This document shows, one piece after another, positions 1,507 to 31,606 of a stretch of DNA of 64,000 nucleotides. The stretch is from positions 271,123 through 335,122 of the forward strand of contig CP058602.1 in assembly GCA_013426185.1 (NCBI GenBank). The letters are read 5' to 3'. Origin of the DNA: Candidatus Woesebacteria bacterium. Lineage in GTDB: Bacteria > Patescibacteriota > Microgenomatia > UBA8517. The notes beneath the pieces are model-generated. The model was not told the DNA's origin and searched no databases. It saw only the letters and a program-made list of their open reading frames with translations. Position 1 is the stretch's first letter. Each line of letters begins with the position of its first letter. A program made the translations under genes and the position numbers.

Positions 1507-2758
1507 CTGTTAGTTTAATTGCTTCTTTATAACCAAAGCTTTGTATCTCCCAAACCTGAGTTTCAGAGAAATTGTAATCTAACGGTGCCAAAACATAAAG
1601 GGTTTTTGAGATGGGATAGTCCTCAACACCCAAAGGAGAAATGTTATTATTGAATCTCAAATAATATCTTAAGATATGACCCCGGGTATCAAAATCGTTG
1701 ATAACAACAACATTAAAGTCAAAAGGATTATCTCTTTTAATTTGTGAGGTAGCATAACTAATATTTTTTATAGTAAGGTCTTTCGGCATGCCGGTCGGTC
1801 TATCAAATTTCACCAATGAGGAACTGATATTGAAGAAAAGATAAACAGTCACAAGCAAGCATACTATCAGTTTGTTTTTATCCCAAATTTTAAACAATAA
1901 ATACCCTAAAATTAGTGCGACAACTGGCCAAAATTGCAAAAAATGATAATACGCAATTCCTGAAATTTCAGGTTTACTTATTGCATCAAGAAAATATTGC
2001 CATAAAACAGTTAGATTGTAAAAATTATGTCTCATGTCAAAAATTATCAGAGGCAAATTCGGAATTAACGACGAAGATATAAAAATCAAAAACGATTTAA
2101 CACGCTCCTTTGATAAAGCCAGCGTTAAGATCAAAACCAGTAAATAAGTAGGCAAGTAAAGATATTCCAATGAAATTCCGACACCTGAAAGAATTCCCAA
2201 CCAAAATACTTGCCAGTATTTAAATTTTGTTTTTTCTTCATGTAACAAGTACAAAGTCAAAACACCAACTAGTGGTAGATAATTCAAAATCCAAATAAAG
2301 AGCGAGTGGTAGATCATATAATTGTTAAATAAAAATAATATTAGAGAAAAGGTCGCAGTTTTTTTACCAAACATCCTCTTAGTAACCATGTAAAAAATCA
2401 GGGCGGTGAAAATGTTCAAAACAGAAAAATAAATAGATATTGGCAATACTTGATAATTAAAAACAAATAGTAATGGAATCAAAGAGTAGCTAAATAAAGA
2501 CCCTGAAAAGATTTTAAGTCCTCGCGAAGTGATTCTTTGAACATTTTCAATTCCAAGAAGGGAAAATTTCTCTTTGATCATATTAGCCGAAGTTTCCAGA
2601 CTTATCGCCTGCTCGGGACCAAAAGTAACTCTATTCTCAAAATTATAAAAACGAACAACCACTGCGACCAGAAAGATCACAATTACCAATAAATTATTTT
2701 TTGATAATATTTTTTTGAAAAAGTTCTTCATATCTCTCGGCAATTTTATCCCAATCAA
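1433..2758 (-). CDS. Polytopic integral membrane protein, possible GT-C-type glycosyltransferase or polymerase
   Basis: 441 aa with many hydrophobic helices. Overlaps the downstream GT2 ORF by ~70 nt, so the true start may be internal. Confidence 0.45.
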   Translation of the reverse strand: MIGIKLPRDMKNFFKKILSKNNLLVIVIFLVAVVVRFYNFENRVTFGPEQAISLETSANMIKEKFSLLGIENVQRITSRGLKIFSGSLFSYSLIPLLFVFNYQVLPISIYFSVLNIFTALIFYMVTKRMFGKKTATFSLILFLFNNYMIYHSLFIWILNYLPLVGVLTLYLLHEEKTKFKYWQVFWLGILSGVGISLEYLYLPTYLLVLILTLALSKERVKSFLIFISSSLIPNLPLIIFDMRHNFYNLTVLWQYFLDAISKPEISGIAYYHFLQFWPVVALILGYLLFKIWDKNKLIVCLLVTVYLFFNISSSLVKFDRPTGMPKDLTIKNISYATSQIKRDNPFDFNVVVINDFDTRGHILRYYLRFNNNISPLGVEDYPISKTLYVLAPLDYNFSETQVWEIQSFGYKEAIKLTDVGKNFGLFKLQRNENVTNYSNLQ

Positions 2759-3776
2759 ACTTCTTTGCCTGAAGCCGTGGAATATTTTTCCAATCCTTAT
2801 TCAAGGCCAAATCTAATGCCTTTGCGTATGAATCAATATCAGTCGGGTCAACTAAGACCCCAGCATCTCCAACAATTTCCCTGCGAATAGGATCGTCTGT
2901 TGCCACAACAGGAAGACCACAAGCCATCGCCTCAACCAAGACATTTCCAAAAGCTTCGCTTGATTCAGATGGCAGTGTAAAAACATTCGCCGCCTGATAT
3001 ATTTTTGGCATCTTCTCAAATGGGATGCTAATAACATTGAAGCGGTCCTTTCCTAAAATCTTCAATCCATAATCTATAATCTCCTGCTTTTTGTCTCCTC
3101 CCCCACCAGCAATAACCAGCTTGGCATCTTTTAACCTTGAAACCGCTTCTATCGCAAGCTCAAGTCTCTTTGACTTAACAAAAGCACCCACCGCAAGAAC
3201 TGTCTTTACTGCTTTTTTTTGTAATTTGGTTCTTGGAGCTTGGAATTTGTTTACATCTACTCCATTTGCAATCTCTACTACTTTAACAAAAGGATTTGCC
3301 TTCTTTGCCCAATTTTTGGCTTTTTCAGAAAGTGCAACAAAAACATCAGGAAAGCACCAAAGATTATTCCTATCATCCCACCCTATCCCTGATTGGCCGG
3401 AAATAATCATCTTGCCACCATAGAGCCAGGTTACAATCCTCAAAATAGCAGGCATAAAACCGCCATTTACAGGAATGATAATATCGTATCTTTCTTTCAA
3501 AATCTGGGTTAAAGACTTAAGGGTAAAAATAAAAATAACTCTGTTTTGGTAATCAAGAAAAACCCGCCTTAAAAAACGATCAGTAAAATCTTTTCTATCA
3601 GGATCAAATTTTATAGAAACCTTTTGAATTTTATAAACCTCTTTACCCTCTCTATCTCCTGCCTGAAAAACAGTTACCTGATGATTTTTAGACAAACGAC
3701 TGGCAAGCTCTTTGACAAAAGTCTCAGCTCCTCGATTAACTACCCCGTTATAGATATTTAAAAAAGCAATTTTCAT
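2694..3776 (-). CDS. GT4 (group 1) glycosyltransferase
   Basis: C-terminal 'E..FG.V..EAMA.G.PVV' GT-B/GT4 signature. Confidence 0.7.
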   Translation of the reverse strand: MKIAFLNIYNGVVNRGAETFVKELASRLSKNHQVTVFQAGDREGKEVYKIQKVSIKFDPDRKDFTDRFLRRVFLDYQNRVIFIFTLKSLTQILKERYDIIIPVNGGFMPAILRIVTWLYGGKMIISGQSGIGWDDRNNLWCFPDVFVALSEKAKNWAKKANPFVKVVEIANGVDVNKFQAPRTKLQKKAVKTVLAVGAFVKSKRLELAIEAVSRLKDAKLVIAGGGGDKKQEIIDYGLKILGKDRFNVISIPFEKMPKIYQAANVFTLPSESSEAFGNVLVEAMACGLPVVATDDPIRREIVGDAGVLVDPTDIDSYAKALDLALNKDWKNIPRLQAKKFDWDKIAERYEELFQKNIIKK

Positions 3777-7221: not shown

Positions 7222-8045
7222 AATCTCCTTTTCAGCTTTTTTGGAAAAGTTTCAAAAAATGCTCTAAGAACATAATACCCACTTCTTTTCTGCCATGGGT
7301 CAAAAACAAAATCCGGCCTTTTTTGATAAAAAACTTCAGGATATTTAAAACCACGAGGAAAAGGAATTCCAAGTTCATACTTATACTTAATATTTCTTTT
7401 AATAACCTCTTTATCCTTAAAAACGGTTGAGGATCTCACAAGATGAGTGAAGTGAAGATAATAATCATCAAGATGAAGCCTTTTCTTATTATCTCTTTTC
7501 TGGATCAAAACCCCATCCCCATCATAAATACCCTGTCTTCCATGAGGATTTGAAAAATGAAGTCCTGGAATTTTTCTATTGAAAAATCTTATGGTCAAAT
7601 GCCCTGTCACGCCATCAATACTATACCTTCCAGCTTCTTCTTCCTGATAATGATAAATATCTCCAACTAAGTTGTAATACCTATGAACCAATGACTCTAA
7701 ATCATCACCCCTTTTATTAATAACATCAATCGCTCTTTTTATACCATCCTCCCACCAAACTTCATCGCCATCTAAAATCATCACCCAATCACAATTTGAG
7801 GCATCTAGCATCTCCTGCCTTACTTCTGTAAATTTTTGAGAGTCTACCTCACCTACTTGGCGAAAGCTGATTTTATCCCGATACTTTTTTACTAACTCCT
7901 TTTCAATTTCTATGCTTCTGTCTGTACTTCCCGTATCCCAAAGAAGAATCCTGTCAACATAAGGCGCAACTGAATTAACAGCAAACCAAAGCCACCGCTC
8001 TTCATTTTTGACAAGAGTATGAACAAAAACAGATTTATGAATCAT
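7194..8045 (-). CDS. GT2-like glycosyltransferase (KNEE / DTGSTD variant)
   Basis: 'LVKNEE...LWDTGSTDRS...LDGDE' resembles the GT-A fold family. Confidence 0.45.
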   Translation of the reverse strand: MIHKSVFVHTLVKNEERWLWFAVNSVAPYVDRILLWDTGSTDRSIEIEKELVKKYRDKISFRQVGEVDSQKFTEVRQEMLDASNCDWVMILDGDEVWWEDGIKRAIDVINKRGDDLESLVHRYYNLVGDIYHYQEEEAGRYSIDGVTGHLTIRFFNRKIPGLHFSNPHGRQGIYDGDGVLIQKRDNKKRLHLDDYYLHFTHLVRSSTVFKDKEVIKRNIKYKYELGIPFPRGFKYPEVFYQKRPDFVFDPWQKRSGYYVLRAFFETFPKKLKRRFWKKGGVGY

Positions 8046-8048
8046 GAT

Positions 8049-8441
8049 TTAAGATTTATGATTTAAGAAAACCTTAGACTTCTTTATAATCCCCTGCAAC
8101 AATTTGTGACACACATCCGCTTGATTCTTAAGAGTAAGATATACATTCTCATCAATGTAACCCACATCTTTAGATATAATCAGCTGATTTTTTAATTCCA
8201 CTAAAGAACCCTGAGCTAAATAATAAAACTGAATTTTCTCCTTGTAAGTCTGCCTCCCAAAACCCTCAGCAATATTACTAGTAACCGAGATGGAAGATCT
8301 TCTTATTTGATCAATCAAAGAATATCTTTCAGATCTTGGAAATTTATCTGTAATCTTATAAAGCATGAGAACTAGCCTATGCCCTTCTTTCCACACATCA
8401 AGATCAGTGAAATCCCTGATTCTATTTATGTTTTTATTCAT
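8049..8441 (-). CDS. Four-helix-bundle protein (TIGR02436 / 23S rRNA intervening-sequence protein family)
   Basis: 130 aa. Diagnostic 'DLDVWKEGHRLVLMLYKIT..FP..ERYSLIDQIRRSSISVTSNIAEGFGR..YKEKIQFYYLAQGSLVEL' pattern. Confidence 0.8.
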   Translation of the reverse strand: MNKNINRIRDFTDLDVWKEGHRLVLMLYKITDKFPRSERYSLIDQIRRSSISVTSNIAEGFGRQTYKEKIQFYYLAQGSLVELKNQLIISKDVGYIDENVYLTLKNQADVCHKLLQGIIKKSKVFLNHKS

Positions 8442-8588
8442 AAATCATAAATCAAAATTCTATAATCCAGTTCTTGATCTTTAAGTTAATCTGTTAATTG
8501 TTATATTGTGATTTTTTTGTAATTTGTACTTTGGAATTTGTACTTTGGAATTTGCCTGCCCTGAACCGAATTTATTCTGGTTCAAGGT
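8442..8588. repeat. Mosaic intergenic repeat: TCATAAA heptamers, AATTTGT/ACTTTGG units and the hairpin core (copy a, inverted, 8549-8587)
   Basis: The reverse complement of 8549-8587 is 'ccttgaaccagaataaattcggttcagggcaggcaaatt'. Confidence 0.8.
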
Positions 8589-9869
8589 TTAGGATTTAGA
8601 ATTTATTGTGTAATACTTAATTACTATTCCCCATGTATAAACCAAAAGAATTGTGTTTGTGATTCCAAATGTAATCGTTGGACCAAAGGCACCAAATTTT
8701 GGAATTAAAAGATAATTTAAAACCAAAATTGCCGCCGTCTGAAAAACTGAAAAAACACCAATAATCTTAGGTTTTTTCATTGCATAAATGATGGCCGAGA
8801 CCGAAGGAGCAGTAAATAAAAAGGGAATCATAGAAAGAGCCAAAGCCTGAAAGACTTTAAACGATTCAAGATATTTAGTGCCAAAAAGAAAAAGAACAAA
8901 AGGCTTGGCAATTATCACCCAGAAAATTATCCCCAAACTGATACCAAGTAATGCCAAAACAGATTTTAGGATAAACCTCTTTTCCTTCTCCTTATCTCCC
9001 ATCGAAGCAAGGCGTGGAGAAATAACAGCTGCAAAACTTGATGTTAAAACAGCAATAAAAAAAGCAAGACGACTGGCAACTGAATAATAACCAGTTACAG
9101 TTGCGCCAGCTAAAGCCGCAAGCATCTGGATATCCGCCCTTCCTGAAATAGAAGATAAAATTCTGTTTACTCCAAGCCAGCCGGAAAATTTAACTAAATC
9201 AAGATAAATGTCTTTTTTCGGTTTTGCCCTTAAAAAATCAAAACCCAAAACAAAATAGGTAACAACTACTGTAACAAGGCCGGTCAAAGCAAAAGCAAAA
9301 AGGGATTTTGATAGAGTAAGCCCAGCAAGAGCAAAAAGCAAAACAAAAACCACACGGCCAAAAGAGTAAGAAACCTCAACGAGCATTGAGGAAGAAAATC
9401 TCTTGTAAGCCTGAAGAACAGAAGAAACAAAACTTGATAAAGAAAGACCAATAAGAATAACTATCGCCCAGTAAACCAAAGAGATATCATCACTTGCCAA
9501 AAGTCTATTTGAAATAACGCGACCAAAAGCAAAGAGGATAAACGAAATAAAAAGAAAAAATAAAACTCTAATCACCAAACCCGCTTTTATGTATTCCTTT
9601 GCTTTTTTATCTTCACCCTGCTTGATACTCGCTATAAAGTTAATAAGCGCCGAACTTACACCAAGATCAAGAATAGGAACTATCATCAAGGCAAGATTGT
9701 TGACAGCCGAAAATACTCCGAAGTCAGAAACTGAAAGAGCTCTTGCCACAAACCAAGTGAAGACAAATCCCAAAAAAGCCGTGGCCACATTGCTGAAAAA
9801 AAGAATGTAAGTATCCCGCGCAGTAGATGAGCGAGCCAGGCCAAAAGCTTTGTCAAAATATCTTCTCAC
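8589..9869 (-). CDS. Polysaccharide biosynthesis protein / oligosaccharide flippase (MOP superfamily, Wzx-like)
   Basis: 426 aa, ~12-14 TM helices, glycine-rich helices typical of Wzx/MATE-like exporters. The C-terminal codons run into the intergenic repeat. Confidence 0.55.
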   Translation of the reverse strand: MRRYFDKAFGLARSSTARDTYILFFSNVATAFLGFVFTWFVARALSVSDFGVFSAVNNLALMIVPILDLGVSSALINFIASIKQGEDKKAKEYIKAGLVIRVLFFLFISFILFAFGRVISNRLLASDDISLVYWAIVILIGLSLSSFVSSVLQAYKRFSSSMLVEVSYSFGRVVFVLLFALAGLTLSKSLFAFALTGLVTVVVTYFVLGFDFLRAKPKKDIYLDLVKFSGWLGVNRILSSISGRADIQMLAALAGATVTGYYSVASRLAFFIAVLTSSFAAVISPRLASMGDKEKEKRFILKSVLALLGISLGIIFWVIIAKPFVLFLFGTKYLESFKVFQALALSMIPFLFTAPSVSAIIYAMKKPKIIGVFSVFQTAAILVLNYLLIPKFGAFGPTITFGITNTILLVYTWGIVIKYYTINSKS

Positions 9870-9929
9870 TCCTCTATTTTAACATTGAAGCGACAAAAGA
9901 GAGAGTAGCAAGTAGGAAGTAGTAAGGAG

Positions 9930-10262
9930 ACTCAATTTCTAAGCACTAATATCTAAATTCTAAACAAATTACAAGTTCCAAATTCCAATATACAAACAAA
10001 TTACAATAAAAAGAGCATAAATCCTAAATTCTAAATCCTAAATTCTAAATCCTAAATTCTAAATCCTAAACCCTGAACCAGAATAAATTCGATTCAGGGC
10101 AGGCAAATTACAAGAACCAAATCATAAATCATAAATCCTAAATCCATATTCAAGAGTCAAAAATTAGATTATTGATTATAGATTGTAGATTATAGAATTT
10201 GGCTTTCTACTTTCTACGTTCTACTTTCTACTTAAATTTCTTTTAACTTTGCACTTTGAAGT
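9930..10262. repeat. Mosaic intergenic repeat: ACAAATT array, (C/T)CTAAAT x8 array, hairpin core (copy b, 10071-10109), TCATAAA, GATTATA/GATTGTA, TACTTTC and AACTTTG heptamer arrays
   Basis: Direct reading. The modules recur in the spacers at 8442, 25380, 26380, 27405 and 29905. Confidence 0.85.
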
Positions 10263-10379
10263 TTTACGTTGTATCCGTATACTAGTACACAGACCAAACA
10301 AAGAAAGTCAATAAAAAAGGAAAACTAAAGCTATTTATCGATGTTAATACATCTACAACGATGATAAAGGTAAAAGGAT

Positions 10380-10408
10380 ACCCTTTAAAGGCCTGGCCTT
10401 TAAAAGGT
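10380..10408 (-). terminator. Palindromic hairpin (CCCTTTAAAGGCC / GGCCTTTAAAAGG) immediately 3' of CDS 10409..11419
   Basis: 13-bp near-perfect inverted repeat with a 1-nt loop. The A/T tract after it is weak. Confidence 0.35.
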
Positions 10409-11419
10409 TCAAGAATCAACCTTAATTATCACCTCTTTAAAAGCTTCGACAAAAGGAACACAAGCCGTAAAAAATCTACCGTTCTCAATCAATAAAGAAG
10501 GAATCGTTAAATAATAATAATTTTCCCTCTGCACTCTTTTCCTGTAAAATCTATTGTGCAGTTCGGCGTATAACTTAGCGGGTTTGATATTATGTTTGGT
10601 ATAGACAAAATATTCAAATAAACCGTTAACCAGAATTTCCTTCGTCTTAAACCAGAGATATGCCCAAAATTCATCTTCTGGAGCAATCTTTTTCACCAAT
10701 CTCAAAGCAAATTCATAAGCATTCTTTTCTTTCAGATACCGCCCTGCTTGAGAACCACTTTCCAGCAAAATTTTTTCGTGTCTTGCGTGTCCTAATTCAT
10801 GAACAAAAGTAAATATCTCGGGAAGTGTTTTTGTCACCAAATCGCATCTTATTTCAAATACATCCTTTCCACTGTTATAAATACAGGAGGCCTCTTGGTT
10901 CTTTCTTTTTATTCTTATCTTATTAATTAATTCTTTTGCTTTAGGGTCTGTCTTTTTCCAAACTCTATAAATTTCGTCTATTTCGTATTTCTTTTGAGAC
11001 CTGTGAGCAGGAAAAGGGAGATAAAATTCTGACCAATATTCTCTTGGAGTACCTTTTTTAAATTTCACCTTTTCATTTATAAAAGAAATTATTACATCCG
11101 AATTCTCAACAAAATTCTTTAAATCATTCTCGGGAATTTCACTTTTTTCTGATATCTCCTCAATAAAGTTTTTATAACCTTTGTAAACAGAGGATTTATT
11201 TAGAAGCTTTACAAACCTGGCAAAACTCCTATCAGCTTCTTTTAGATCTTTCTCATACTTTTTAAACTTCCTCAACTTCTCAGCATAATCGACCCGCGCA
11301 AAAAAGATTCTTCTCAATCTTTTTGCTTTAACATCAGTTACAAGACTTCTTATTTTATGAAGTTCTAATCCTGCTTCAAACAAAGTAGCCTTATAAAGAA
11401 GATCTTTATTCTTCATCAC
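10409..11419 (-). CDS. ImmA/IrrE-family (COG2856-like) HExxH metallopeptidase-domain protein
   Basis: 'FVHELGHARHEK' matches the HE[LI]GH..H signature of ImmA/IrrE zinc peptidases. The N-terminal ~200 aa is unassigned. Confidence 0.45.
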   Translation of the reverse strand: MMKNKDLLYKATLFEAGLELHKIRSLVTDVKAKRLRRIFFARVDYAEKLRKFKKYEKDLKEADRSFARFVKLLNKSSVYKGYKNFIEEISEKSEIPENDLKNFVENSDVIISFINEKVKFKKGTPREYWSEFYLPFPAHRSQKKYEIDEIYRVWKKTDPKAKELINKIRIKRKNQEASCIYNSGKDVFEIRCDLVTKTLPEIFTFVHELGHARHEKILLESGSQAGRYLKEKNAYEFALRLVKKIAPEDEFWAYLWFKTKEILVNGLFEYFVYTKHNIKPAKLYAELHNRFYRKRVQRENYYYLTIPSLLIENGRFFTACVPFVEAFKEVIIKVDS

Positions 11420-11429
11420 TAATCTTATA

Positions 11430-11500
11430 AAAATGGGGTGGGTAGAAACATCGAGAAAGAAATACTTGGTTTCAACCCACCCCCAGGTTGGCTGGTTATT
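11430..11500 (-). terminator. Putative rho-independent terminator (GC-rich stem GGGGTGGGT/ACCCACCCC followed by a T-run)
   Basis: Minus-strand read: 'ggggtgggttgaaacc...ctacccaccccatttttat'. Confidence 0.4.
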
Positions 11501-11511
11501 CTAAAAGGTCA

Positions 11512-11703
11512 TTAGTTTGAACCGTCCTGCCTAGCTTGATCCATGGCCTCTTTTGCCTCGGAGTCACTAACTCCCGTGTCTTTAGCTGCATCCTTGTAAG
11601 TATAACCATCTCTCGTTGCAAGCCACTCAGCTACTTCGTACGAAAGTTGGCTAACCTCCGGCTTGGTATCCTTATCGTCACTCTTCTTATCTCCAGGTCC
11701 CAT
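11512..11703 (-). CDS. Small acidic protein (63 aa) with N-terminal M-GPGDK, paralog of 25750..25950
   Basis: Strong SD (GGAGG, 7 nt upstream), a sigma70-like promoter and a downstream hairpin. Shares the N-terminal GPGDK and DGYT motifs and a 5'UTR motif GTTGGCT with the 25750 gene. Confidence 0.5.
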   Translation of the reverse strand: MGPGDKKSDDKDTKPEVSQLSYEVAEWLATRDGYTYKDAAKDTGVSDSEAKEAMDQARQDGSN

Positions 11704-11790
11704 AGTTAACCTCCTTACAATGTAAAAGTGCCAGCCAACCTTTAATAATCATATTTTAAAATAAATAGGCTTAATTTTCAAATTCTTCTA
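11704..11790 (-). promoter_or_regulatory. Sigma70-like promoter (TTGAAA-N17-TAAAAT) plus a ~45-nt leader with a GGAGG SD for the small acidic protein gene
   Basis: Read on the minus strand: 'ttgaaaattaagcctatttattttaaaat...gttggctggc...taaggaggttaactATG'. Confidence 0.45.
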
Positions 11791-11817
11791 CAGGTCACAG
11801 ACTTTTTAGACATTCCT

Positions 11818-12245
11818 CATTTCTCAATAAGGTAGCCTAATGGTGGTTTAAAGCCAAAAGACTCATGGAGTCTTTTGCTATTATAGAATATCAGATATTC
11901 TGCTAGTTTTTCATAAAAGAGTTTGGGATGATAGATTAAATCTGAATTTGGTTCTAAGAATTCTTCCTTTAAAGTTCTTTGATATCTTTCAATTACTCCA
12001 TTAATTTTGGGACAAAGAGAGGATAAATAAAGTAATTGGTAATTTGTCTTTTTGAAAGATATTTTTCAAAGATTCCTTGGAATTCTAACCCATTATCAGT
12101 CTGGATGGATCTAATTTGTCCTGGGTAAACTAACTCCAAATTCTTGAAGAAGTCTAAGGTATTGAAACTATTAAGCTTAAAATAGGGTAAAGAAAAACCA
12201 AATTTGAGCTTGATATTACAAGCAGAGTAAAGATAAAGTTTTACT
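11818..12245 (-). pseudogene. Degraded DDE integrase (rve-domain, IS481/IS3-like) transposase remnant, C-terminal part only, frameshifted
   Basis: Minus-strand translation gives '...LVYPGQIRSIQTDNGLEFQG...' then, after a frameshift, 'NGVIERYQRTLKEEF...YNSKRLHESFGFKPPLGY'. This matches the rve core (DNGxEF ... NGxVER..RTLK). There is no intact ORF and the N-terminus is missing. Confidence 0.6.
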
Positions 12246-12291
12246 TCTTGGCCAACTTCAAGCTAAACAAAATTGACAAGGTCCGTCCTTG

Positions 12292-13617
12292 TCACTTAGC
12301 ATCTACAATCTTCAATTTTTCAAAACCATAATAAGCGGCGACACAGGATGAAACCCAGCCTTTATTATCGGTAAAACTATCAAGACCGCCCACCGGTTTA
12401 ATATTTTTAATTTCAGGAAGATTTTTAACTTCCCTATCCCAGCTAACAGCATAGTTTGCTATCTCGGATCTAACAGACAACCAGTGAGAAAAGACCGACC
12501 TGGTCAAAAAGAAAATAGCAAAAAAATTTAAAAACAAAATAAGCACAAACATCTTTTTCTTAATAAAATCCGAAGAAAAATAATAATTGAACAAGCCAAA
12601 AAGAGAAAGCGAAATAATATAAAAAGAAAATAAAACAAAATAAAAGACAATAAAAAGAGTCCTTTCAGGAGGAATTATAGACATTGAATAATATCCGGAG
12701 AAAATAACCGCCATTGTAGAAAAAACTATATTTGCCAAAGCAAAAACTAAAATCAAAACCGTCTTTTTAGGATCGATTTTTATCTTTTTAGCAAAAAATA
12801 GAGTTGACGCAAAAATAATCAAAAGAGAATACAAAAAAGGCTTAAGACTTGCCATTCTCAAAAGGTACCATTTTGTGGCAAGAACTGAGGACTTAATAAC
12901 AAAAACCAAACTCTCAGGCTTTGTGACAGTCAGACTTCTTGCATCATTGCCAGGTGAAAGAGACATCAAAAAGAGAGAGACCAAAACTCCCAAAAAACCT
13001 GAAATAACAAATTTTAATCTTGACTTTAAGCCATCAAGCTTAAGAATATATAAAGAAGAAATAACTAAAAATATAAAGACCAAAAGACTAAGCGCAAAAG
13101 CTTCAGAAAAACCGGAAGCAATAAAAAGCAAAATGAAGCCCAATAAAAACCTGCGCTTATTTTCCCGAAGAATAAGAAGCGATAAAAAGGCATTCAAAAA
13201 TACAAAAGGAATAGTGTAATTTAAAGAACCAGTCTGCCAATAAAAAGACTGAATTATATTCGGCGCATTGATTAAAACCAAAAGAATAAAAACCACGGAA
13301 AAGATAATACTCTTAAAGAAGATAACACGAGAGGTCAAAACCAAAAGGGAAAATAAAACTAAAGGCAATATCCGAACAATCCACGGACCCATTGATTCAA
13401 ACAAATCAGTAAAAAAGACAGCAGAATATCTCCCTGTCCAACTTTTCCACCAGCCAATCTGCGCCCCGATAAAGCCATTATTCCGAAGAAAAACTGCGGA
13501 ACAAAAATCATCAACCCAATAACGGACGTAAAAAGAAGTGGTAATTATAAAATAAAGGCAAATTGAAATAAAAACGAGGTAAGTAAAATAGATGAGAAAC
13601 CTTTTAAAAATAGGCAT
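12292..13617 (-). CDS. Polytopic membrane protein (GT-C or polymerase candidate)
   Basis: 441 aa, highly hydrophobic, multi-TM. Confidence 0.45.
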   Translation of the reverse strand: MPIFKRFLIYFTYLVFISICLYFIITTSFYVRYWVDDFCSAVFLRNNGFIGAQIGWWKSWTGRYSAVFFTDLFESMGPWIVRILPLVLFSLLVLTSRVIFFKSIIFSVVFILLVLINAPNIIQSFYWQTGSLNYTIPFVFLNAFLSLLILRENKRRFLLGFILLFIASGFSEAFALSLLVFIFLVISSLYILKLDGLKSRLKFVISGFLGVLVSLFLMSLSPGNDARSLTVTKPESLVFVIKSSVLATKWYLLRMASLKPFLYSLLIIFASTLFFAKKIKIDPKKTVLILVFALANIVFSTMAVIFSGYYSMSIIPPERTLFIVFYFVLFSFYIISLSLFGLFNYYFSSDFIKKKMFVLILFLNFFAIFFLTRSVFSHWLSVRSEIANYAVSWDREVKNLPEIKNIKPVGGLDSFTDNKGWVSSCVAAYYGFEKLKIVDAK

Positions 13618-13800
13618 CAGATTACAAGCTCCAAATTACAAATCACAAATTACAATTTACAAACAACTAACAAATTACAATATACAAATTACAAATCACA
13701 ATATACAAGCACCAATAAACAAATTACAAGCTACAAATCACAAATCACAATATACAAATTCCAAATCACAAATTAACTCAAAACTTAAAAATCAAAGTCA
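13618..13800. repeat. 7-bp-periodic tandem array (ACAAATT/ACAAATC/ATATACA variants), ~25 units
   Basis: Direct reading: 'acaaatt acaaatc acaaatt acaattt acaaaca ...'. Related arrays occur in at least 8 other spacers. Confidence 0.85.
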
Positions 13801-13803
13801 AAA

Positions 13804-14148
13804 TTACTTAAATTTATTTATTATTGACGAAAGAATATTTCTGATTTCGATGCACTCTTTAATCAAATTTTCAAGTTCGAGCTTAAACTTTGGTTCGGCC
13901 TCGAGTAAAATATCCAACCAATAAGAAGTCTCTTTGGCTTCTTTTCTAGCAATTTTCAGCCTAAGGACAGAATCTTTTTTACTCAAGCTATCATTTGCTT
14001 CTCGATAATTGGCACCAACACTTGTGGCAGACCTTACAATTTGACTAATCAAAGGTATATTAATACTGTTTTTAGGAAGTTTCCTGCAAAGAGAAATCAC
14101 ATCTTTTGAGAAGGCTAAAGTTCTTTCCTCTAAGTCGTAAACCTTCAT
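13804..14148 (-). CDS. Four-helix-bundle protein (TIGR02436 family), second copy
   Basis: 'ERTLAFSKDVISLCRKLPKN...ISQIVRSATSVGANYREA...KIARKEAKETSYWLDIL' matches the family. Flanked on both sides by inverted heptamer arrays. Confidence 0.8.
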   Translation of the reverse strand: MKVYDLEERTLAFSKDVISLCRKLPKNSINIPLISQIVRSATSVGANYREANDSLSKKDSVLRLKIARKEAKETSYWLDILLEAEPKFKLELENLIKECIEIRNILSSIINKFK

Positions 14149-14159
14149 ATTATTTTGTT

Positions 14160-14290
14160 ATCAATTGTAATTTACTTCTTGGAATTTGTGATTTGTTTAT
14201 TGAGATTTGTTATTGTTTGTAATTTAGAATTTGGAGCTTGGGATTTGTTTGTAATTTGTGATTTGTAATTTGGAATTTTAACCAGAAGTA
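14160..14290. repeat. Heptamer tandem array in the opposite orientation (AATTTGT/GATTTGT/AATTTGG)
   Basis: Inverted relative to the 13618-13800 array. Overlaps the 3' end of CDS 14172..15911. Confidence 0.8.
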
Positions 14291-15911
14291 TTGCTTTTGC
14301 ATCCATTCTTTCATAATTCTTGGAGGGCTCAATCTGATACACACCCTTTAATTCATATTCTTCTGCAATTTTGTCGCATCCATCGCATTTCCATTTAGTC
14401 TTATCTTGCGGGTTTTCAAAAATCATTCTCCAATCCTCACCCATATAATAATTCGGGTCGTCAATTTTATAGCTTGTCAGATAAATCGCGTCAAAAGGTA
14501 TTGTTTGAGTTTTTTCGTCAATAAGTTGTTTTGGCTCAAGAGGAAACCAAACGGTTTTGCGTTCTCCATACCAAGTGCCCCAAGTATCAAGATTTGTAAC
14601 AATCACCTGGTTTGGCTCTGTATTCTCCTTTAAAATTTTTGAGAGTTCTACATAAACAGGTGGCTTGCCAACATTATGTGTCCTTGCCTCAAAGCGTGAG
14701 TCAAGAAGTAAAATTCCAAGAGTTTGACCAACAGCTAAGAAAAGCACCAATATACAAGATCCAATAAACAAAAAGCTTCGCTTTGTAACTTGCTTGGAAT
14801 TTGTTTGTGATTTGGAATTTGGAATTTGTAATTTGGAGCTTGGAATTTGTTTGTAATTTGTAATTTGGAATTTGTTAATTATTCCAACCAGTGTTCCTAC
14901 TCCAACTATATAAACCAAAGGCACAACGGGATGTATGTATCTAAAAAAAGGAATTCCAGCTGCTGTTACCAAAAGAGTTAAAACTACCATAAAAAAAGAC
15001 GCTACTTTAAAGCCAGTCTGAAGAGTAGTTTGCCCTTCTTTTGTCCTATCAAAAAGAGAAAATAATCCGATTACAAAAAGAGTAAAAAGATAAGGATTCA
15101 AAATTTGTGGCATCAACTTGTAAAAGTTGTAAAGGTTGTAGAAAACTTTCTTGAAAAGAGAAAGAAAATTAAAAGATTGTCGCGGCAAACCGCGCAAAGC
15201 GTCAGAAACTGCCATATTAGGGCTGTGCTGAAGAGAAACAAAATTGCCGATTGAAGTTACAGAATAAAGGAAGAACCTTCCTTGAAACTTTGGAATTAGA
15301 AAATAATCAACCAAAAGGCCAAATAAAACTAGACTTAAGAACCAAGACAAAGCCTTTTTTGGTTTAAAATTAATAAGTAACCAATAAAGAATAATTCCTG
15401 CGATATAAATAAAGGCTTGAGTGCGGGTAAAATACATTAAAATCAAAAAGAAAAACATCAAGAAATTAGCCCATTTTTTCTTCAAAGAAACAAAATATAA
15501 TGAGGCAACTATCTGAAAAATAAAAGTAGATTCTGAAGCCCCACTTGTTGCATAGTCAATTAGATTATAATTTGCGCCAACTGCCAAAGTAGAAAGGAAG
15601 CCTATTAGTTTTGAATTGAAGATCTTTTTTGCAAGAAGATAAACAAAGACTAAAGTTAAAAGAAAATAAAAAAAGGAATTGGCGATAACTGCAAAATCAG
15701 AAATTCCAAGGATTTTGAAAAAGAAAGCAATTGATAAAGAATGAAAAGGCAAAATGCCAGTGTTTTGGAAAAGAGGTTTTTCCAAAACTTCAAAAATCCT
15801 TTCTCCCCAAAAAGAAAAACTTGTCCCCCACCCCCTACCCAAAACAAAATTCCTAGCAACATCAGCATATTTTGCAGAATCAGAAAAAGTGAGATAAAAG
15901 TCCATATTCAT
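14172..15911 (-). CDS. GT-C-type polytopic membrane glycosyltransferase (ArnT/PMT-like). Carries a repeat-derived in-frame internal insertion and a repeat-derived C-terminal tail
   Basis: N-terminal region and TM architecture resemble the ArnT-like paralogs. Codons at ~14760-14885 and 14172-14290 are heptamer-repeat sequence translating to N/K/S/Q/T-rich peptide (NYKSQITN...). Confidence 0.5.
   Translation of the reverse strand: MNMDFYLTFSDSAKYADVARNFVLGRGWGTSFSFWGERIFEVLEKPLFQNTGILPFHSLSIAFFFKILGISDFAVIANSFFYFLLTLVFVYLLAKKIFNSKLIGFLSTLAVGANYNLIDYATSGASESTFIFQIVASLYFVSLKKKWANFLMFFFLILMYFTRTQAFIYIAGIILYWLLINFKPKKALSWFLSLVLFGLLVDYFLIPKFQGRFFLYSVTSIGNFVSLQHSPNMAVSDALRGLPRQSFNFLSLFKKVFYNLYNFYKLMPQILNPYLFTLFVIGLFSLFDRTKEGQTTLQTGFKVASFFMVVLTLLVTAAGIPFFRYIHPVVPLVYIVGVGTLVGIINKFQITNYKQIPSSKLQIPNSKSQTNSKQVTKRSFLFIGSCILVLFLAVGQTLGILLLDSRFEARTHNVGKPPVYVELSKILKENTEPNQVIVTNLDTWGTWYGERKTVWFPLEPKQLIDEKTQTIPFDAIYLTSYKIDDPNYYMGEDWRMIFENPQDKTKWKCDGCDKIAEEYELKGVYQIEPSKNYERMDAKAILLVKIPNYKSQITNKSQAPNSKLQTITNLNKQITNSKK
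14760..14885. repeat. Heptamer array embedded in-frame inside CDS 14172..15911
   Basis: 'ttggaatttgtttgtgatttggaatttggaatttgtaatttggagcttggaatttgtttgtaatttgtaatttggaattt'. Confidence 0.8.
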
Positions 15912-25270: not shown

Positions 25271-25379
25271 CTATCAGACGCAGACAAAGCATATTAGTAT
25301 AAACTCCCCCTATTTTAGCATCTTTAAAAATTTTTTGAGTATAAAACAGAAGTTAACTTAAAACTTATGATCAGATTAT

Positions 25380-25530
25380 AGAAACAAATTACAATATACA
25401 AGCTCCAAATTACAAACTAACTTAAAACTTAAAAATCAAAAGTCAAAAATATAACTCAAAAATTAAAACTCAAAAGTTAAAACATTGATTATAGAATTTT
25501 GATTTATGATTTATGAATTAAGAAGCAATC
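25380..25530. repeat. Mosaic intergenic repeat (ACAAATT heptamers, AAAACTT/AAAAGTC heptamers, TTGATTTATGA units)
   Basis: Shares modules with the spacers at 8442-8588, 9930-10260 and 27405-27780. Confidence 0.7.
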
Positions 25531-25666
25531 AACTCCGATATCCGAAGGCTGATAGCTGAAATCCGAATTCTTTCAACTTTGAACTATTGAATATTGATTT
25601 AAGAATTAGGAATCTCATTCATCTTTATTCTAAAACTACCAAAATTCTTCCTAGATGCACAACGAA

Positions 25667-26007: not shown

Positions 26008-26376
26008 ATGAGATACTTTACGGGAAAGAACAAAATTGAATTGCCTTTATCCAAATCAAAATGGAAGGAAATCCTTAAAGTCGTTAGGGCGGATGAAAGA
26101 AACCTAAGCGAAGAAGATGCCAAAAATATCTTCTGCCTATCTTTTGAGTTTTTCCTAAAAGGCAAACTTTCAATAGATGATATATCTTCAATCAATGGTA
26201 GGCTTTTGGAAGCCATAAGCGGTAGAACCAATAAATACCCAGAACTAATTGACGGACTAGAAGCAGGATCAGAACTAGGCTTTTACATTAGAGACATAAA
26301 CTTGATACTAAACTTTAAAAACTTTCTTGAAGAAGTCTTCTCTGTTTATAATTCACTCCGCTCTCAGACAAAATAA
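26008..26376 (+). CDS. Hypothetical soluble protein (122 aa)
   Basis: ORF only. No recognisable motif. Confidence 0.35.
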   Translation: MRYFTGKNKIELPLSKSKWKEILKVVRADERNLSEEDAKNIFCLSFEFFLKGKLSIDDISSINGRLLEAISGRTNKYPELIDGLEAGSELGFYIRDINLILNFKNFLEEVFSVYNSLRSQTK

Positions 26377-27707: not shown

Positions 27708-28844
27708 CTATAATCTACAATCTATAATCAATAATCTAATTTTTGACTTTTGACTTTTAAGTTTTGAGTTAATAAAAGATCCCAACGAAAGATAAATAAA
27801 AGGAAGAATTATAAGAAAATAACGGCTGAAAGGAGCATTAAAGATATTTATCAAAAAATAAAAAATAGGAAAAATAAAAATAAAATCCTTCTTTTCCAGC
27901 CTTTTGATATTTTTAATCTGCAAAATCCCAAAAACAAAACCCAAAGGCCAGAAGAAATTCCAAACATCAGCTTTTAAGATTCTTCCCTTCTCCCACCAAC
28001 TCACAAAATGACCACTGAAAAACAAAAGTAGATTATTGCCAAAAATAGAAGTGGTATTGTGAGAAAGCATAAACTTAAGCATTTTTAATTCAAAAAGAAA
28101 AATGTTAAAAAGGCCGCCATAATTTATGAAAGTCTTGATATAAGTAAGACTGAAAGTAAAAAAGGCTACCAAAAAACTCAAAAACATATTTTTATAATCA
28201 ACCTTTTCTTTAATCAAAAATTTTCTGTAAAGAAAAATAAAAACCACAAGAAGCAAGCTTGAGCTCCAAAACTTGGAGGCAAAAAGAAGACCCAAGACAA
28301 AACCGTTCAAAAGAAAATTATTGGGAAAATATAAAGCCAAAATTATGTAAAATAAAGAAAACACAGCTTGTGCCGGATCCAAAAGCAATTGTGTAATATT
28401 ATCCTTTAGAAGTGGGTCAAAAACAAGAAAAAGCGAGGCCAAAAAAGCAACTTCTCTCTTCTTAAAAGCCATCTTTCCCAAAAGATAAGTCAAGAATATT
28501 AAAAATAAAGCAAAGAAAATTTGCACCCAATAGGGATTTACAAAAAAGAGGGTAGCAAAACCAAAAAGATACTTTACAAGAGGAGGATGCTGAAAATTAA
28601 ATTTTGTCGGGTCCTCACCCTTGGCATAAAGATAACCTGTGGCAAGGTAAATTTCAGAATCAGATAAAAATATTCTATCTTTTATTTTGTCTTCTTTATC
28701 TTCTATATCTTGGCTGCGAAAATAATTATCGATTAGACCTTCATCAAAACGATATTTGAAAATATCAGGATTTTTAAAATAGGAAAAAACCAAAAAGAGA
28801 ATAAAAAGCAAAAACAAAAGCCAAAAATCAACTTTTTTAAGCAT
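27708..28844 (-). CDS. Polytopic membrane protein
   Basis: 378 aa, multi-TM. Lies between the inverted repeat copies together with gmd. Confidence 0.45.
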   Translation of the reverse strand: MLKKVDFWLLFLLFILFLVFSYFKNPDIFKYRFDEGLIDNYFRSQDIEDKEDKIKDRIFLSDSEIYLATGYLYAKGEDPTKFNFQHPPLVKYLFGFATLFFVNPYWVQIFFALFLIFLTYLLGKMAFKKREVAFLASLFLVFDPLLKDNITQLLLDPAQAVFSLFYIILALYFPNNFLLNGFVLGLLFASKFWSSSLLLVVFIFLYRKFLIKEKVDYKNMFLSFLVAFFTFSLTYIKTFINYGGLFNIFLFELKMLKFMLSHNTTSIFGNNLLLFFSGHFVSWWEKGRILKADVWNFFWPLGFVFGILQIKNIKRLEKKDFIFIFPIFYFLINIFNAPFSRYFLIILPFIYLSLGSFINSKLKSQKSKIRLLIIDCRL

Positions 28845-28853
28845 TAATAGAGG

Positions 28854-29864
28854 CTACTTCAAACGAGCCAGATTAGCATCAACAAGCATCTGAACAAGCT
28901 CTTTAAAAGAGGTTTTGGGCTTCCAGCCAAGAACTTTCTTTGCTTTTGATGGATCAGCCACAAGAGGCCCAGTTTCAGTAGGTCTTATGAAACGAGGATC
29001 AACATAAATATACTTTTTATAGTCAAGGCCAACATAAGAAAAGGCCTCTTCACAAAGCTCTTTGATAGAGTGAGTTTCACCTGTACCTACAACAAAATCA
29101 TCAGGTTCTTTGTGCTGAAGCATTAGCCACATGCTTTCTACATAATCACCAGCAAAACCCCAATCTCGTCTTGCTTCGAGATTGCCAAGTGCCACTTTTC
29201 CATCTTTAACAATGGGTTCTCCCTCTTCATTCAAATGCTGACTAGTTCTAATACCAAGCTTTGCACAGGCAGCAGCATAAGTAACTTTTTGGGTTACAAA
29301 ACCAAGACCACGGCGAGGCGACTCGTGATTAAATAAAATACCACAGGAAATAAACATTTTATAACTCTTTCGATAAATTCTGGCAATATTATGAGCATAA
29401 AGCTTTGCGGCAGCATAAGGATTTGCGGGATTAAAGGGCGTTTCTTCATTTTGTGGAATCTCCTTCACCCATCCGAACATCTCGCTAGATGACGCTTGAT
29501 AAAACCTCGCATTAGGAACTACGTCTAAAGCAGCATCCATTACTCTATGAGCACCAATACCAGTTATTTCAGCTGTGTGAATAGGCTGTCTGAAGGATTC
29601 GGCGGGATGAGATTGAGAAGCTAAATTATAAATTTCATCGGGCTTAACTTTTTGTATAGCCTCTCTTATTGCCACAGGGTCAAGTAAATCTGCCTGAATA
29701 AGATTAAGCCTCTCTTGAATGTGAGCAATATTGGCATAATAAAAGTGGCTAGTTTTTCTTACAATACCCGAGACCTCGTAACCCTTTTTAAGAAGAAATT
29801 CAGCCAAGTAAGAACCGTCTTGACCAGTGATACCCGTAATAAGTGCCTTTTTCTTCTTTGACAT
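28854..29864 (-). CDS. gmd: GDP-mannose 4,6-dehydratase
   Basis: 'ALITGITGQDGSYLAEFLLKKGYEVSGIVR' N-terminus, a YxxxK active site, and the conserved 'RRGxxFVTxK' region. Full length of 336 aa. Confidence 0.9.
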   Translation of the reverse strand: MSKKKKALITGITGQDGSYLAEFLLKKGYEVSGIVRKTSHFYYANIAHIQERLNLIQADLLDPVAIREAIQKVKPDEIYNLASQSHPAESFRQPIHTAEITGIGAHRVMDAALDVVPNARFYQASSSEMFGWVKEIPQNEETPFNPANPYAAAKLYAHNIARIYRKSYKMFISCGILFNHESPRRGLGFVTQKVTYAAACAKLGIRTSQHLNEEGEPIVKDGKVALGNLEARRDWGFAGDYVESMWLMLQHKEPDDFVVGTGETHSIKELCEEAFSYVGLDYKKYIYVDPRFIRPTETGPLVADPSKAKKVLGWKPKTSFKELVQMLVDANLARLK

Positions 29865-30406: not shown

Positions 30407-31606
30407 TCACGCTACCCAATAGCCCCTGATGAAATAGGTAAGAAGAATAAATTGAAGAATAATCAGAAATGGTATTACCAACTTTACAAGACGTGGATAT
30501 TTTTCTGCCAAAAAAGGAAAAATCAAAAAGGCGGTTAAAGTATAACGAGGCATTGAGGTTAGAGTTCCTGTTAGGGTAGGTATAATTAAAACCAAAAAAG
30601 TAAAAATAAAATAAGAAAACCTCATTTTTCTGATAAAAAGAAAAAGCAAAGAAAAAAACAAAAGGGCAAGTAACAACTCAAATAAAGCAATGTTAAATTG
30701 ATAAGAAAAGATCGGAGTGTGAATAAAAATTTTGAAGTATCTATAAACTACTTGAGGCAAAAGAATAATTGGTTTGTCGCTTCTTTCTGCTGCAAAAAGA
30801 GGTTGTGCCTCAACAAAATAAAAAGGCTTACCAAAAAATTTCCAAAGATAAAACATATAAAAAACAAGACCTAAAGGAGAAATCAAAACTCCCAAAAAAT
30901 CTTTTAGAAATTGCTTTGACAGTTTTATTTTGCCTTTATAATTTAGATAAAACTCAATAAGAATAAGCAGAAAAAGACAAACTCCAACTACCTTTGTGAG
31001 AGAAGCAAAAGCGGCAAAAATACCTGCAAACAAAAATTTTTTCTTGAAAGAAAAATAAACAGAAAGAGAAGCTAAAAACAAAAACAAAGATTCGGTATAA
31101 ATAGCTCCAAAATAAAAACCAGTCGGCCAGGACAAAAGCAAGATAAGAGAAAGAAGAGCAGTTTTTGAATTAAAAATATTTTTGACTAGAAGATAAAAGG
31201 CATAAAAAGCCAACAAAGCAAAAACGTTTGAGACCAAAAGGGCAACGGCAAAAAAAGAGGGATCAACATAAACACTGGTATCAAGAGCCATATCTTTGGG
31301 CAAGAAATTCAAAATTCTAACGAGGAAAGGATAGAGAGGAAAAAATGCCTGAGAAGGTATAAAATCATAGCCGTTTTGAGCTATCCTTAAATAATGCACT
31401 CCATCAAAACCTCCCCATCCCCAAAGCCAAGGTGGAAGTTTGGTTATCTCCAAAACCCTTTCAACATAAGGAAACCAATGGCCATAATTGGGTACTAAAA
31501 AAACAGAAAGATAAGAAACAACAAAAAGTAAAATTCTCCATAATAAAAAGACAAAGAAAACAAGAAGAAAATCATTTCGCAACAATTTAGAAAAGAATTT
31601 TTTCAT
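30407..31606 (-). CDS. GT-C mannosyltransferase-like membrane protein (PIG-V / GT76-like, bacterial DUF-type)
   Basis: 'PWLWGWGGFDGVHYLRIAQNGYDF...AFFPLYP' resembles the PIG-V family W-DG-HY..IA..GY motif. Multi-TM. Confidence 0.45.
   Translation of the reverse strand: MKKFFSKLLRNDFLLVFFVFLLWRILLFVVSYLSVFLVPNYGHWFPYVERVLEITKLPPWLWGWGGFDGVHYLRIAQNGYDFIPSQAFFPLYPFLVRILNFLPKDMALDTSVYVDPSFFAVALLVSNVFALLAFYAFYLLVKNIFNSKTALLSLILLLSWPTGFYFGAIYTESLFLFLASLSVYFSFKKKFLFAGIFAAFASLTKVVGVCLFLLILIEFYLNYKGKIKLSKQFLKDFLGVLISPLGLVFYMFYLWKFFGKPFYFVEAQPLFAAERSDKPIILLPQVVYRYFKIFIHTPIFSYQFNIALFELLLALLFFSLLFLFIRKMRFSYFIFTFLVLIIPTLTGTLTSMPRYTLTAFLIFPFLAEKYPRLVKLVIPFLIILQFILLTYFIRGYWVA

Follow-up and report, generated by a model that had tools for sequence, protein, structure and literature searches.

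Two small genes of the four-helix-bundle family TIGR02436 (S23p), located in a 64,000-nt stretch of a Candidatus Woesebacteria genome (assembly GCA_013426185.1, contig CP058602.1, positions 271,123 to 335,122; the whole stretch is hereafter called the window), are each enclosed by two complementary arrays of degenerate heptamers. Gene and inverted arms together form a discrete, polar and widespread unit, with CAA-type heptamers on the 5′ side and TTG-type heptamers on the 3′ side, which recurs across many phyla and in which the sequence of the arms tracks that of the protein. We regard it as probable (roughly 0.6) that the two window modules, at 13618-14279 (ca. 660 bp) and 8021-8588, are insertion modules of messenger RNA resembling the intervening sequences (IVSs) of rRNA. 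The S23p/TIGR02436 family is large and has solved structures, and we know of no function for it; tandem heptamer arrays have long been known in bacteria and are unexplained. Should the gene and the inverted arrays constitute one unit, the protein would gain a candidate ligand and the arrays a candidate origin.

Four-helix-bundle genes enclosed by inverted heptamer arrays

The window has a G+C content of 32.6% and nearly all of its genes lie on the minus strand. It carries a very large glycosylation cluster with genes for GT2, GT4 and PMT_2-like proteins, a flippase, a methyltransferase and GDP-mannose dehydratase. The components of the two modules are as follows.

13618..13803, minus strand: downstream arm of module 2; period-7 tandem repeats, with CAA runs of 6 and 16 units
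13804..14148, minus strand: copy 2, a 114-aa four-helix-bundle gene of the S23p/Avd-like family (TIGR02436, PF05635, PDB 2RLD)
14149..14279, minus strand: upstream arm of module 2; tandem rows at 14186-14215 and 14248-14278, with plus-strand TTG runs in 7-nt register
8021..8069, minus strand: downstream arm of module 1; TAAATCA/TAAATCT units, with period-7 tandem repeats at 8031-8068
8049..8441, minus strand: copy 1, a 130-aa four-helix-bundle gene (TIGR02436, 119 bits; PF05635, 127.1 bits, E 4e-37)
8442..8588, minus strand: upstream spacer of module 1; a TGATTTA-type arm by the start codon (8433-8479 as aligned), CAA-type units at 8517-8554 and a GC-rich hairpin at 8560-8587

A first-pass annotation, made from the sequence alone, had assigned both genes to TIGR02436, and both scored far above the cut-off. 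Copy 2 reached 89.9 bits against TIGR02436 (cut-off 24) and 69.9 bits against PF05635 (cut-off 33.8, E 2.5e-19), and aligned across residues 6-112 with PDB 2RLD, which is deposited as five chains (E 2.3e-16). The copy-2 protein is basic (isoelectric point 9.3) and is under purifying selection, with a ratio of nonsynonymous to synonymous substitution rates (dN/dS) of 0.10-0.25 against its relatives.

The repeats around copy 2 were characterized by several approaches. Tandem Repeats Finder reported one array at 13621-13775, with a period of 7 and 22.6 copies, and smaller ones at 14186-14215 and 14248-14278. When lags of 3 to 12 were compared, only lag 7 yielded 42-nt windows that were at least 80% self-identical (22 versus 0). 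On the sense strand the upstream arm consists of degenerate (A/C)CAA(A/G)NN heptamers and the downstream arm of TTG-type heptamers, the latter being the plus-strand ACAAATT-type array, so that copy 2 reads [(A/C)CAA(A/G)NN]n, gene, [complement]n. Alignment of 13633-13758 with the reverse complement of 14154-14278 gave 94 complementary columns out of 122 and a score of 53, compared with 25.5 ± 3.2 in 300 dinucleotide shuffles (z 8.6). The location of the second copy inside inverted heptamer arrays, as originally proposed, was thus confirmed, and the coordinates given for it were correct to within about 10 nt: judged from relatives, the outer edge of the right-hand array lies at about 14279, not at 14290. 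The left-hand array reaches the start codon of the DUF6056 gene (13617).

Module 1 has the same architecture on a smaller scale. Its arms (8021-8066 and 8433-8479) are complementary at 36 of 46 positions (z 7.0, likewise against dinucleotide shuffles), are shorter than those of module 2 and consist of another heptamer, which reads TGATTTA upstream and TAAATCA downstream. The first-pass annotation had associated both copies with a single repeat family; both are indeed bracketed by inverted arms, those of copy 1 being shorter and of another heptamer. An orthologue of copy 1 occupies the same place in locus L089 (related loci are designated by L numbers). None is present in L001 or L006, which hold instead a 124-aa four-helix-bundle gene one gene further on; in the sister strain the arms of this 124-aa gene are of the AAAACTT/AAGTTTT type.

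The package of gene and arms in other genomes

To compare the family in other species, 80 loci (L009-L088) carrying copy-2 relatives at 45-65% identity were collected. These were the best matches to copy 2, and the percentages given below hold for the copy-2 subfamily; other subfamilies were sampled solely via second copies in the comparison loci and via four plasmids. Taxon labels in the set comprise Patescibacteria, Omnitrophota, Gammaproteobacteria, Planctomycetota, Desulfobacterales, Bacteroidota, Ignavibacteria, Dehalococcoidia and others, and those of metagenome-assembled genomes may be wrong. Genes in these loci were simple open reading frame (ORF) calls; 74 homologous genes formed the test set and 394 other genes of the same loci served as controls. 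A gene was scored as having an inverted bracket when its two flanks gave an inverted-repeat alignment score of at least 18, as having strong lag-7 periodicity when a flank showed at least 20/28, and as having CAA (or TTG) in register when at least three occurred in 7-nt register.

Looking for arrays beside other members of TIGR02436, as the first-pass annotation had suggested, bore the association out: an inverted bracket was found around 77% of the 74 four-helix-bundle genes and 1.3% of the 394 controls, and conversely 8% of the former and 77% of the latter had neither arrays nor an inverted repeat. Strong lag-7 periodicity was seen in a flank of 56% of the four-helix-bundle genes against 17.5% of controls, and the other lags from 4 to 12 were not enriched (at most 1.5% in both groups). 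A strict criterion, in which both arms had to show at least 17/21 at lag 7, was satisfied by merely 2.7% of the genes because the units are too degenerate; inverted-repeat alignment and the CAA/TTG register are therefore the informative measures.

The register also disclosed a fixed polarity. CAA was in register upstream of 43% of the four-helix-bundle genes (controls, 1.3%), TTG downstream of 39% (controls, 2.5%), and both features occurred jointly in 34% (controls, 0.4%), with the reverse polarity in 0-4% of cases. CAA is the most periodic trinucleotide of the heptamer and the positions that follow it are variable. A conserved signature, CAAAYAAW upstream and WTTRTTTG downstream, was found at 31% of the four-helix-bundle genes and 0.6% of controls, most commonly with CAAAYAAW 13 nt before the start codon. 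Runs of CAA or TTG in 7-nt register amounted to 1.08 per kb within 250 nt of the four-helix-bundle genes and to 0.067 per kb elsewhere, a 16-fold enrichment. In the comparison loci the arms measure about 55 nt, stop 12 nt before the first profile position and resume 12 nt past the stop codon; since they end about 12 nt from the ORF, they fill the spacers out to the neighbouring genes.

The length distribution of CAA register runs in the 80 loci was not geometric: lengths of 3, 4 and 5 were represented by 65, 101 and 16 runs, and lengths of 6 to 11 by none. The next CAA run typically begins 4 nt after the last CAA, and the resulting super-repeat spans about 25 nt, its junction reading CAAA(C/T)AA.

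The two arms of an element belong together, and with their gene. Own arms pair at -37.2 kcal/mol compared with -27.1 kcal/mol for arms taken from different elements, and outdo 95% of cross pairs in 35% of the four-helix-bundle genes versus 2.7% of controls. Similarity of the arms, measured by 6-mers, correlated with similarity of the proteins (Spearman 0.50, equalled in 0 of 200 permutations), a correlation that may partly reflect host relatedness and base composition. Arms and protein vary together in sequence.

Heptamer arrays also flank annotated four helix bundle genes on both sides in finished plasmids of cultured Nostoc, Planktothrix, Bernardetia and Treponema strains, the unit differing each time, and the bracket is therefore not an assembly artefact. 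The arms are clearly inverted in the Nostoc punctiforme, Planktothrix agardhii and Bernardetia plasmids. The arrangement in Treponema saccharophilum is more complicated, with inverted arrays upstream of the gene, one of which recurs downstream in the same orientation. The 70.6-kb Planktothrix plasmid contains four strong heptamer arrays in all, three of them beside its sole four-helix-bundle gene. In this plasmid (P. agardhii p1, 13214-13843; L096/L099), gene and arms have drmD, which encodes the DISARM helicase, on one side and an MmeI-type restriction-modification gene on the other; past the inverted 3′ arm the 5′-type array recurs, directly oriented, before the next gene, and a 205-bp array at 23468-23672 underlies an annotated "hypothetical protein".

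The family at large is extensive, a single query sequence detecting 7,681 clusters (50% identity) at E ≤0.001. In three long products (P0130, P0168 and P0205, of 213, 425 and 210 aa) the four-helix-bundle domain is C-terminal, and gene callers may have fused the upstream gene to it through a stop-free 5′ arm.

Probable insertion of the modules between host genes

The genes around module 2, and an array within one of them, are listed below.

12292..13617, minus strand: downstream host gene, DUF6056/GT_STM0557_N (PF19528, E 3e-20)
14172..15911, minus strand: upstream host gene, a PMT_2-like glycosyltransferase (weak PF13231 match), which adjoins DUF6056 in relatives devoid of the module
14792-14880, minus strand: CAA-type tandem array within the PMT_2-like coding sequence; in-frame translation FQITNYKQIPSSKLQIPNSKSQTNSKQ

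The upstream arm of copy 2 is stop-free in the frame of the PMT_2-like gene, and this frame closes 24 nt before the copy-2 start codon. The final ca. 33 residues of the PMT_2-like ORF are consequently translated upstream arm: PMT_2 orthologues terminate at ILL(V/I)K, and the 52% identical orthologue of L113 at ILLIKKPG*, whereas the window ORF continues for about 33 residues through the array. Precisely the 27 residues encoded by the in-gene array are likewise missing from the L113 orthologue, and this array is longer in strain L001. In module 1, the downstream arm overlaps the last codons of copy 1 and provides the GT2 gene with its start and first codons, its N-terminus being MIHKSVFVHTL in the window and MKSIYVHTL in L001, which lacks module 1. 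Thus the arms create spurious ORFs and lengthen neighbouring genes at the N- or C-terminus: one glycosyltransferase of the window has acquired a tail of 33 residues and an insert of 27, and another a new start codon.

Comparison of orthologous junctions, another check that had been suggested at the outset, revealed empty sites. In loci whose DUF6056 homologues are 47-56% identical (L104, L105, L107, L108, L111 and L113), the PMT_2-like gene and DUF6056 lie directly next to each other, -1 to 65 nt apart, with neither a four-helix-bundle gene nor arrays between them. In strains with 96-97% identical DUF6056, the slot is occupied by copy 2 (L101), by another, 124-aa four-helix-bundle gene (L103), or by a DUF5674 gene and an 87-aa ORF (L102). 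The last of these (L102, 1095-1684; DUF5674, E 1e-20; flanking genes about 96% identical to those of the window) has TGATTTA-type units upstream and a GC hairpin with TTG-type units downstream, and no clear inverted bracket. Across strains at least 95% identical, the copy-2 downstream arm measured 109, 186, 258, 283, 289 or 290 bp, with both ends conserved and internal units gained or lost. Arms thus vary in length among near-identical strains and mark cassette-swap sites of this surface-glycosylation cluster. Short gene-less CAA/TTG hairpins were also present in module-carrying genomes (z -2.7 to -5.4).

A further relative of copy 2 was found in L093, at the junction that corresponds to the array-only spacer 27404-27770 of the window. 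The possibility that this spacer is a module minus its gene was rejected, as it has no arrays in common with the L093 spacer, which points to replacement and not to simple deletion.

In the comparison set the 74 upstream neighbours matched 115 Pfam families, including MreB, SecA, SecY, ClpP, RuvB and tRNA synthetases. The neighbours of the module are unrelated housekeeping genes, a context that fits insertion and not a function tied to them. No reverse transcriptase or transposase family recurred among the families listed for upstream or downstream neighbours. The upstream neighbour was on the same strand in 69 of 74 cases (93%), compared with 73% of other adjacent pairs (p 5e-5), and both neighbours were co-oriented in 80% (baseline, 55%). 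Both window copies likewise lie on the strand of their operon.

Predicted folding of the transcript and a proposed mechanism

In both the minimum-free-energy and the centroid folds predicted for the transcript, the arms close a stem around the ORF (z -4.0 for module 2 and -2.1 for module 1). The fold predicted for the 124-aa copy of L001 also places the ORF in an arm-closed loop (z -3.3). A terminator scan found nothing terminator-like between the PMT_2-like gene, copy 2 and DUF6056, and promoter-like sites did not exceed the shuffled expectation; on these grounds the module would be transcribed by read-through and have no promoter of its own.

The following sequence of events is proposed. In the transcript the arms would zip into a long imperfect duplex with the ORF as the enclosed loop, and because the arms are repeats the stem would be possible in many registers and would tolerate slippage. 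By analogy with rRNA IVSs, RNase III could cut this duplex, which would free the module from the polycistronic RNA, or insulate it, with little harm to the host. As only about 12 nt separate the stem from the start and from the stop codon, translation would be expected only before the 3′ arm is made, or by ribosomes from the upstream gene invading the 5′ arm. Through slippage and homologous recombination the repeat arms might spread, shrink and swap cargo with no dedicated transposase.

The most speculative step concerns the protein, which is basic and pentameric in solved homologues and might bind its own heptamer repeats. Hints in this direction are the CAA core, conserved across phyla with a spacing of 7 nt, the way in which arms and protein co-vary, the basic charge and the pentameric toroid of homologues. 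The protein TRAP reads spaced triplets. In a comparable manner, one pentameric ring of the S23p family might read a block of CAA-N4 units, and each protein lineage might co-evolve with its own heptamer as a self-propagating pair of protein and repeat, such pairs being the source of many heptamer arrays in cyanobacteria, Bacteroidota, candidate-phyla (CPR) bacteria and others. Taken as a whole, the proposal that the family binds 7-nt repeats sequence-specifically, in co-evolving pairs that gave rise both to the arrays and to ORF-carrying rRNA IVSs, is tentative and in our view more doubtful than the insertion of the modules as such. A simpler correspondence, five-unit runs mirroring the pentamer, was discarded: register runs peak at four units, and the +4 phase shift with its super-repeat offers no obvious fit.

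Heptamer arrays without the gene and other features of the spacers

Arrays that accompany no four-helix-bundle gene were mapped in the window at the following positions.

9869-10409, 25270-26008, 26376-26650, 27404-27770 and 29864-30407: array-only spacers
14792-14880 (gene 14172..15911) and 3207-3274 (gene 2694..3776): arrays within genes, oriented so as to be free of stop codons

The array-only spacers are mosaics of ACAAATT, TAAATCC, AAATCAT, TAGATTA, CTTTCTA, TTTTAAC, CTTTTAC, AGAACAA and other heptamers. The modules of these mosaics have a partly conserved order and are common to several spacers, in either orientation, with 85-94% identity. One perfect inverted repeat of 124 nt (100% identity; 27584-27707 and 30156-30279, extended by 27519-27564 and 30299-30344) combines a palindrome with micro-arrays of several distinct heptamers. 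Two operon-strand genes lie between its halves, those for GDP-mannose 4,6-dehydratase (28854..29864) and for a 378-aa protein with no Pfam match (27708..28844), and in a transcript the repeat would form a very long perfect duplex around a 2.4-kb loop.

GC-rich hairpins recur in the AT-rich spacers, at 10071-10099, 30047-30075, 8560-8587 (reverse strand) and 26456-26495 of the window, and at about 415-455 of L089 and about 1711-1750 of L102. Their sequence is ccctgaaccagaataaattcgattcaggg, or cccgcctgc...gcgggcagg; every window copy precedes CAGGCAAATT and a CAA-type array, and the hairpins look like a separate mosaic module similar to repetitive extragenic palindromic (REP) elements.

The stretch between DUF6056 and the flippase (10409-12292) varies among near-identical strains (compared with L001 11929-12221, L006 11796-13373 and L002 3564-4858). 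It holds nothing in L001, a 525-aa PMT gene on the opposite strand in L003, L006, L007 and L008, and a 63-aa ORF with a 324-336-aa gene in the window, L002 and L004. A DNGxEF motif at 11993-12139 resembles by eye a fragment of an rve-type integrase, which Pfam does not confirm. Small ORFs at 11512-11703 (minus strand) and about 25750-25950 (plus strand) have a common M(G/S)GPGDK N-terminus and both lie in variable, repeat-bounded islands; after the latter comes a 122-aa ORF (26008..26376) that runs counter to the operon and matches no Pfam family. At 30369-30408, four tandem copies of the 10-nt unit GACCAGCTTC, unusually GC-rich for this genome, overlap the first two stop-codon bases of gene 30407..31606 and continue into the spacer.

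Discussion

The bracket of complementary arms, its polarity and the presence or absence of the whole module at orthologous junctions argue for insertion modules with an IVS-like organization. A number of observations weigh against this interpretation. Heptamer arrays with no four-helix-bundle gene occur in five spacers and two coding sequences of the window, and the perfect 124-nt inverted repeat surrounds other genes; the arrays have a life of their own, being associated with the gene and not inseparable from it. Relatives at 69-76% protein identity (Woesebacteria-like) keep the genes at roughly the same place in the cluster, which indicates long-term residents and not frequent jumpers. Neither target-site duplications nor sharply defined termini were found, and filled and empty sites compared with each other show no obvious duplication; the ends are blurred by the overlap of the arms with coding sequence of the host. 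The frequencies obtained for the comparison loci do not extend to PF05635 as a whole. Mismatches between the arms show no excess of G.U over A.C (49 versus 38, p 0.28) and include many transversions, so selection for an RNA stem in the sense transcript is not demonstrated, the idea of such a stem rests on architecture only, and a DNA-level cause of the inverted repeat is possible. Finally, the analogy with the Coxiella IVS is incomplete, as the protein encoded there is apparently not made whereas the window ORF is clearly conserved.

These points delimit what can be retained of the first-pass annotation. Its idea that repeats and gene form a unit holds in so far as the association is general, and has to be relaxed in that arrays in the window are not exclusive to four-helix-bundle genes. 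The mobile or selfish character that it suggested is supported by the general bracket, the empty sites and the swapped cargo, although neither transposition machinery nor a target-site duplication was found and no transposase was linked to the modules. Conserved synteny of the two copies across distant relatives, which it had named as evidence to the contrary, was absent at the copy-2 junction of distant relatives, which have no module there, and was seen at the 69-76% level.

Several other explanations were considered. The proteins could be host regulators, or RNA/DNA chaperones, of the glycosylation cluster, with the arrays as binding sites or autoregulatory operators. Within the window this has some appeal: ACAAATT-type arrays recur at 9965-9995, 25385-25415, 26496-26519 and 29927-30010, and TGATTTA/AAATCAT-type arrays at 10117-10148 and 25497-25524; relatives at 69-76% identity have the genes at a comparable position of the cluster; the protein is basic and under purifying selection; and the CAA core is most periodic while the other four positions vary, as for a recognition site. 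Elsewhere, however, the package sits between unrelated housekeeping genes with its arrays concentrated at the gene (1.08 versus 0.067 per kb), distant relatives have the same operon junction with no module, and near-identical strains carry unrelated cargo instead, all of which renders a regulatory role unlikely. We consider even less likely a small DNA transposon, or an element akin to miniature inverted-repeat transposable elements (MITEs), having the arms as terminal inverted repeats with multiple subterminal binding sites, its transposase elsewhere and the gene as passenger or accessory. A transposase is not regularly found near the modules, target-site duplications were not seen, the arms are of unequal length and vary freely from strain to strain, and co-orientation with host transcription (93% versus 73%) is unexpected for a self-expressed DNA transposon. 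Such an origin would nevertheless agree with the resemblance of inverted arms with repeated subterminal motifs to some transposon ends, with the gene-less hairpin versions, with the patchy distribution across phyla and co-inheritance of arms and gene, and with arms devoid of G.U bias; a Y1 transposase gene also lies 5 kb away in L093, and the unconfirmed rve-like fragment at 11993-12139 might be cited in the same sense.

It is quite improbable that the association is incidental, heptamer arrays being general in intergenic DNA where small horizontally acquired genes land. Gene-less arrays are admittedly common in the window, the DUF5674 cassette in the copy-2 slot also has some heptamer units, and mixed heptamer assemblages have been described in Microcystis, Bacteroidetes and Beggiatoaceae with no mention of the gene (PMC4679880). 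Chance landing is difficult to reconcile with the 16-fold enrichment of arrays at the genes, a polarity fixed relative to the gene, complementarity of own arms exceeding that between elements, a conserved signature whose distance from the start codon is fixed, arms that track protein phylogeny, and the location of three of the four arrays of a whole Planktothrix plasmid at its one gene. As for the proposal that the genes encode Avd accessory proteins of diversity-generating retroelements, it derives from weak matches of copy 1 to Avd models (NF033474, 29.6 bits, cut-off 80; PF22296, 28.8 bits, cut-off 40; PHROG 3206, E 7e-11), all of which fall below curated cut-offs. No reverse transcriptase was present among the scanned window ORFs (at least 100 aa, minus four antisense shadow ORFs) or among the families listed for 141 neighbouring genes elsewhere, no template/variable repeat pair was seen, and this proposal is effectively refuted.

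Two further identities were rejected. The proteins are not known defence proteins, since no PADLOC family matched either of them. The modules are not rRNA IVSs in the strict sense, since no Rfam family, rRNA included, matched the window or the arms and the flanks are protein-coding genes; nor was an rRNA context found in those 11 comparison loci whose ORF-free flanks are largest.

In the literature, of which our coverage is incomplete so that an earlier mention is possible, we found no link between this gene family and inverted heptamer arrays and no IVS-like modules borne by operons. Heptamer arrays and assemblages, IVS-encoded S23p proteins and the occurrence of the domain in CPR rRNA insertions were known.

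Among known systems, REP elements, bacterial interspersed mosaic elements (BIMEs) and MITE-type elements also reside in operon spacers, have a mosaic build, occur in both orientations, form hairpins and include gene-less copies. The modules differ from them by their conserved ORF, by arms of tandem heptamers in place of a single palindrome, and by the lack of a linked RAYT-type or other transposase. Avd proteins share the homologous four-helix-bundle fold, the basic character and the pentameric state of solved structures; in contrast to Avd of retroelements, the modules have no reverse transcriptase or template/variable repeats, and their gene stands alone between unrelated genes. Closer in their repeats are the cyanobacterial short tandemly repeated repetitive (STRR)-type arrays and the TAACTGA arrays, the latter described in Beggiatoaceae, cyanobacteria and Bacteroidetes (PMC4679880). 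These too are short tandem runs of 7 nt, with several heptamers per spacer, often immediately upstream of start codons and readable through in one orientation, and roles in translation and rearrangement have been suspected. Their descriptions are of direct repeats lacking a partner gene, whereas the arms of the modules are complementary pairs around one gene family, with a fixed polarity, a conserved signature and units (ACAAATT and others) that differ from the published ones.

The closest parallel is provided by the S23p IVSs of Coxiella burnetii and Leptospira. The Coxiella IVS is a selfish element with an inverted-repeat stem and an S23p ORF in the loop, in sense orientation, that is excised by RNase III and whose encoded protein is apparently not made; a Xanthomonas homologue of the family is a pentameric toroid (PMC4990558). 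The four-helix-bundle domain is also present in rRNA insertions of CPR bacteria (PMC11270868). S23p IVSs and the modules described here have in common the protein family, a single small sense ORF in the loop of an inverted-repeat stem, the absence of a mobility gene, a sporadic distribution suggestive of horizontal spread and the existence of short ORF-less versions. They differ in their host, which is helix 9, 25 or 45 of 23S rRNA for the IVSs and the spacer of a protein-coding operon for the modules; in their stem, a unique one of 28 bp as opposed to arms of 45-180 nt made of degenerate heptamer arrays; and in their ORF, which in Coxiella is decaying and apparently untranslated and in the modules is under purifying selection. 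If the unit proposed here is real, the intervening sequences of rRNA would be a special case of a commoner element that resides inside ordinary operons.

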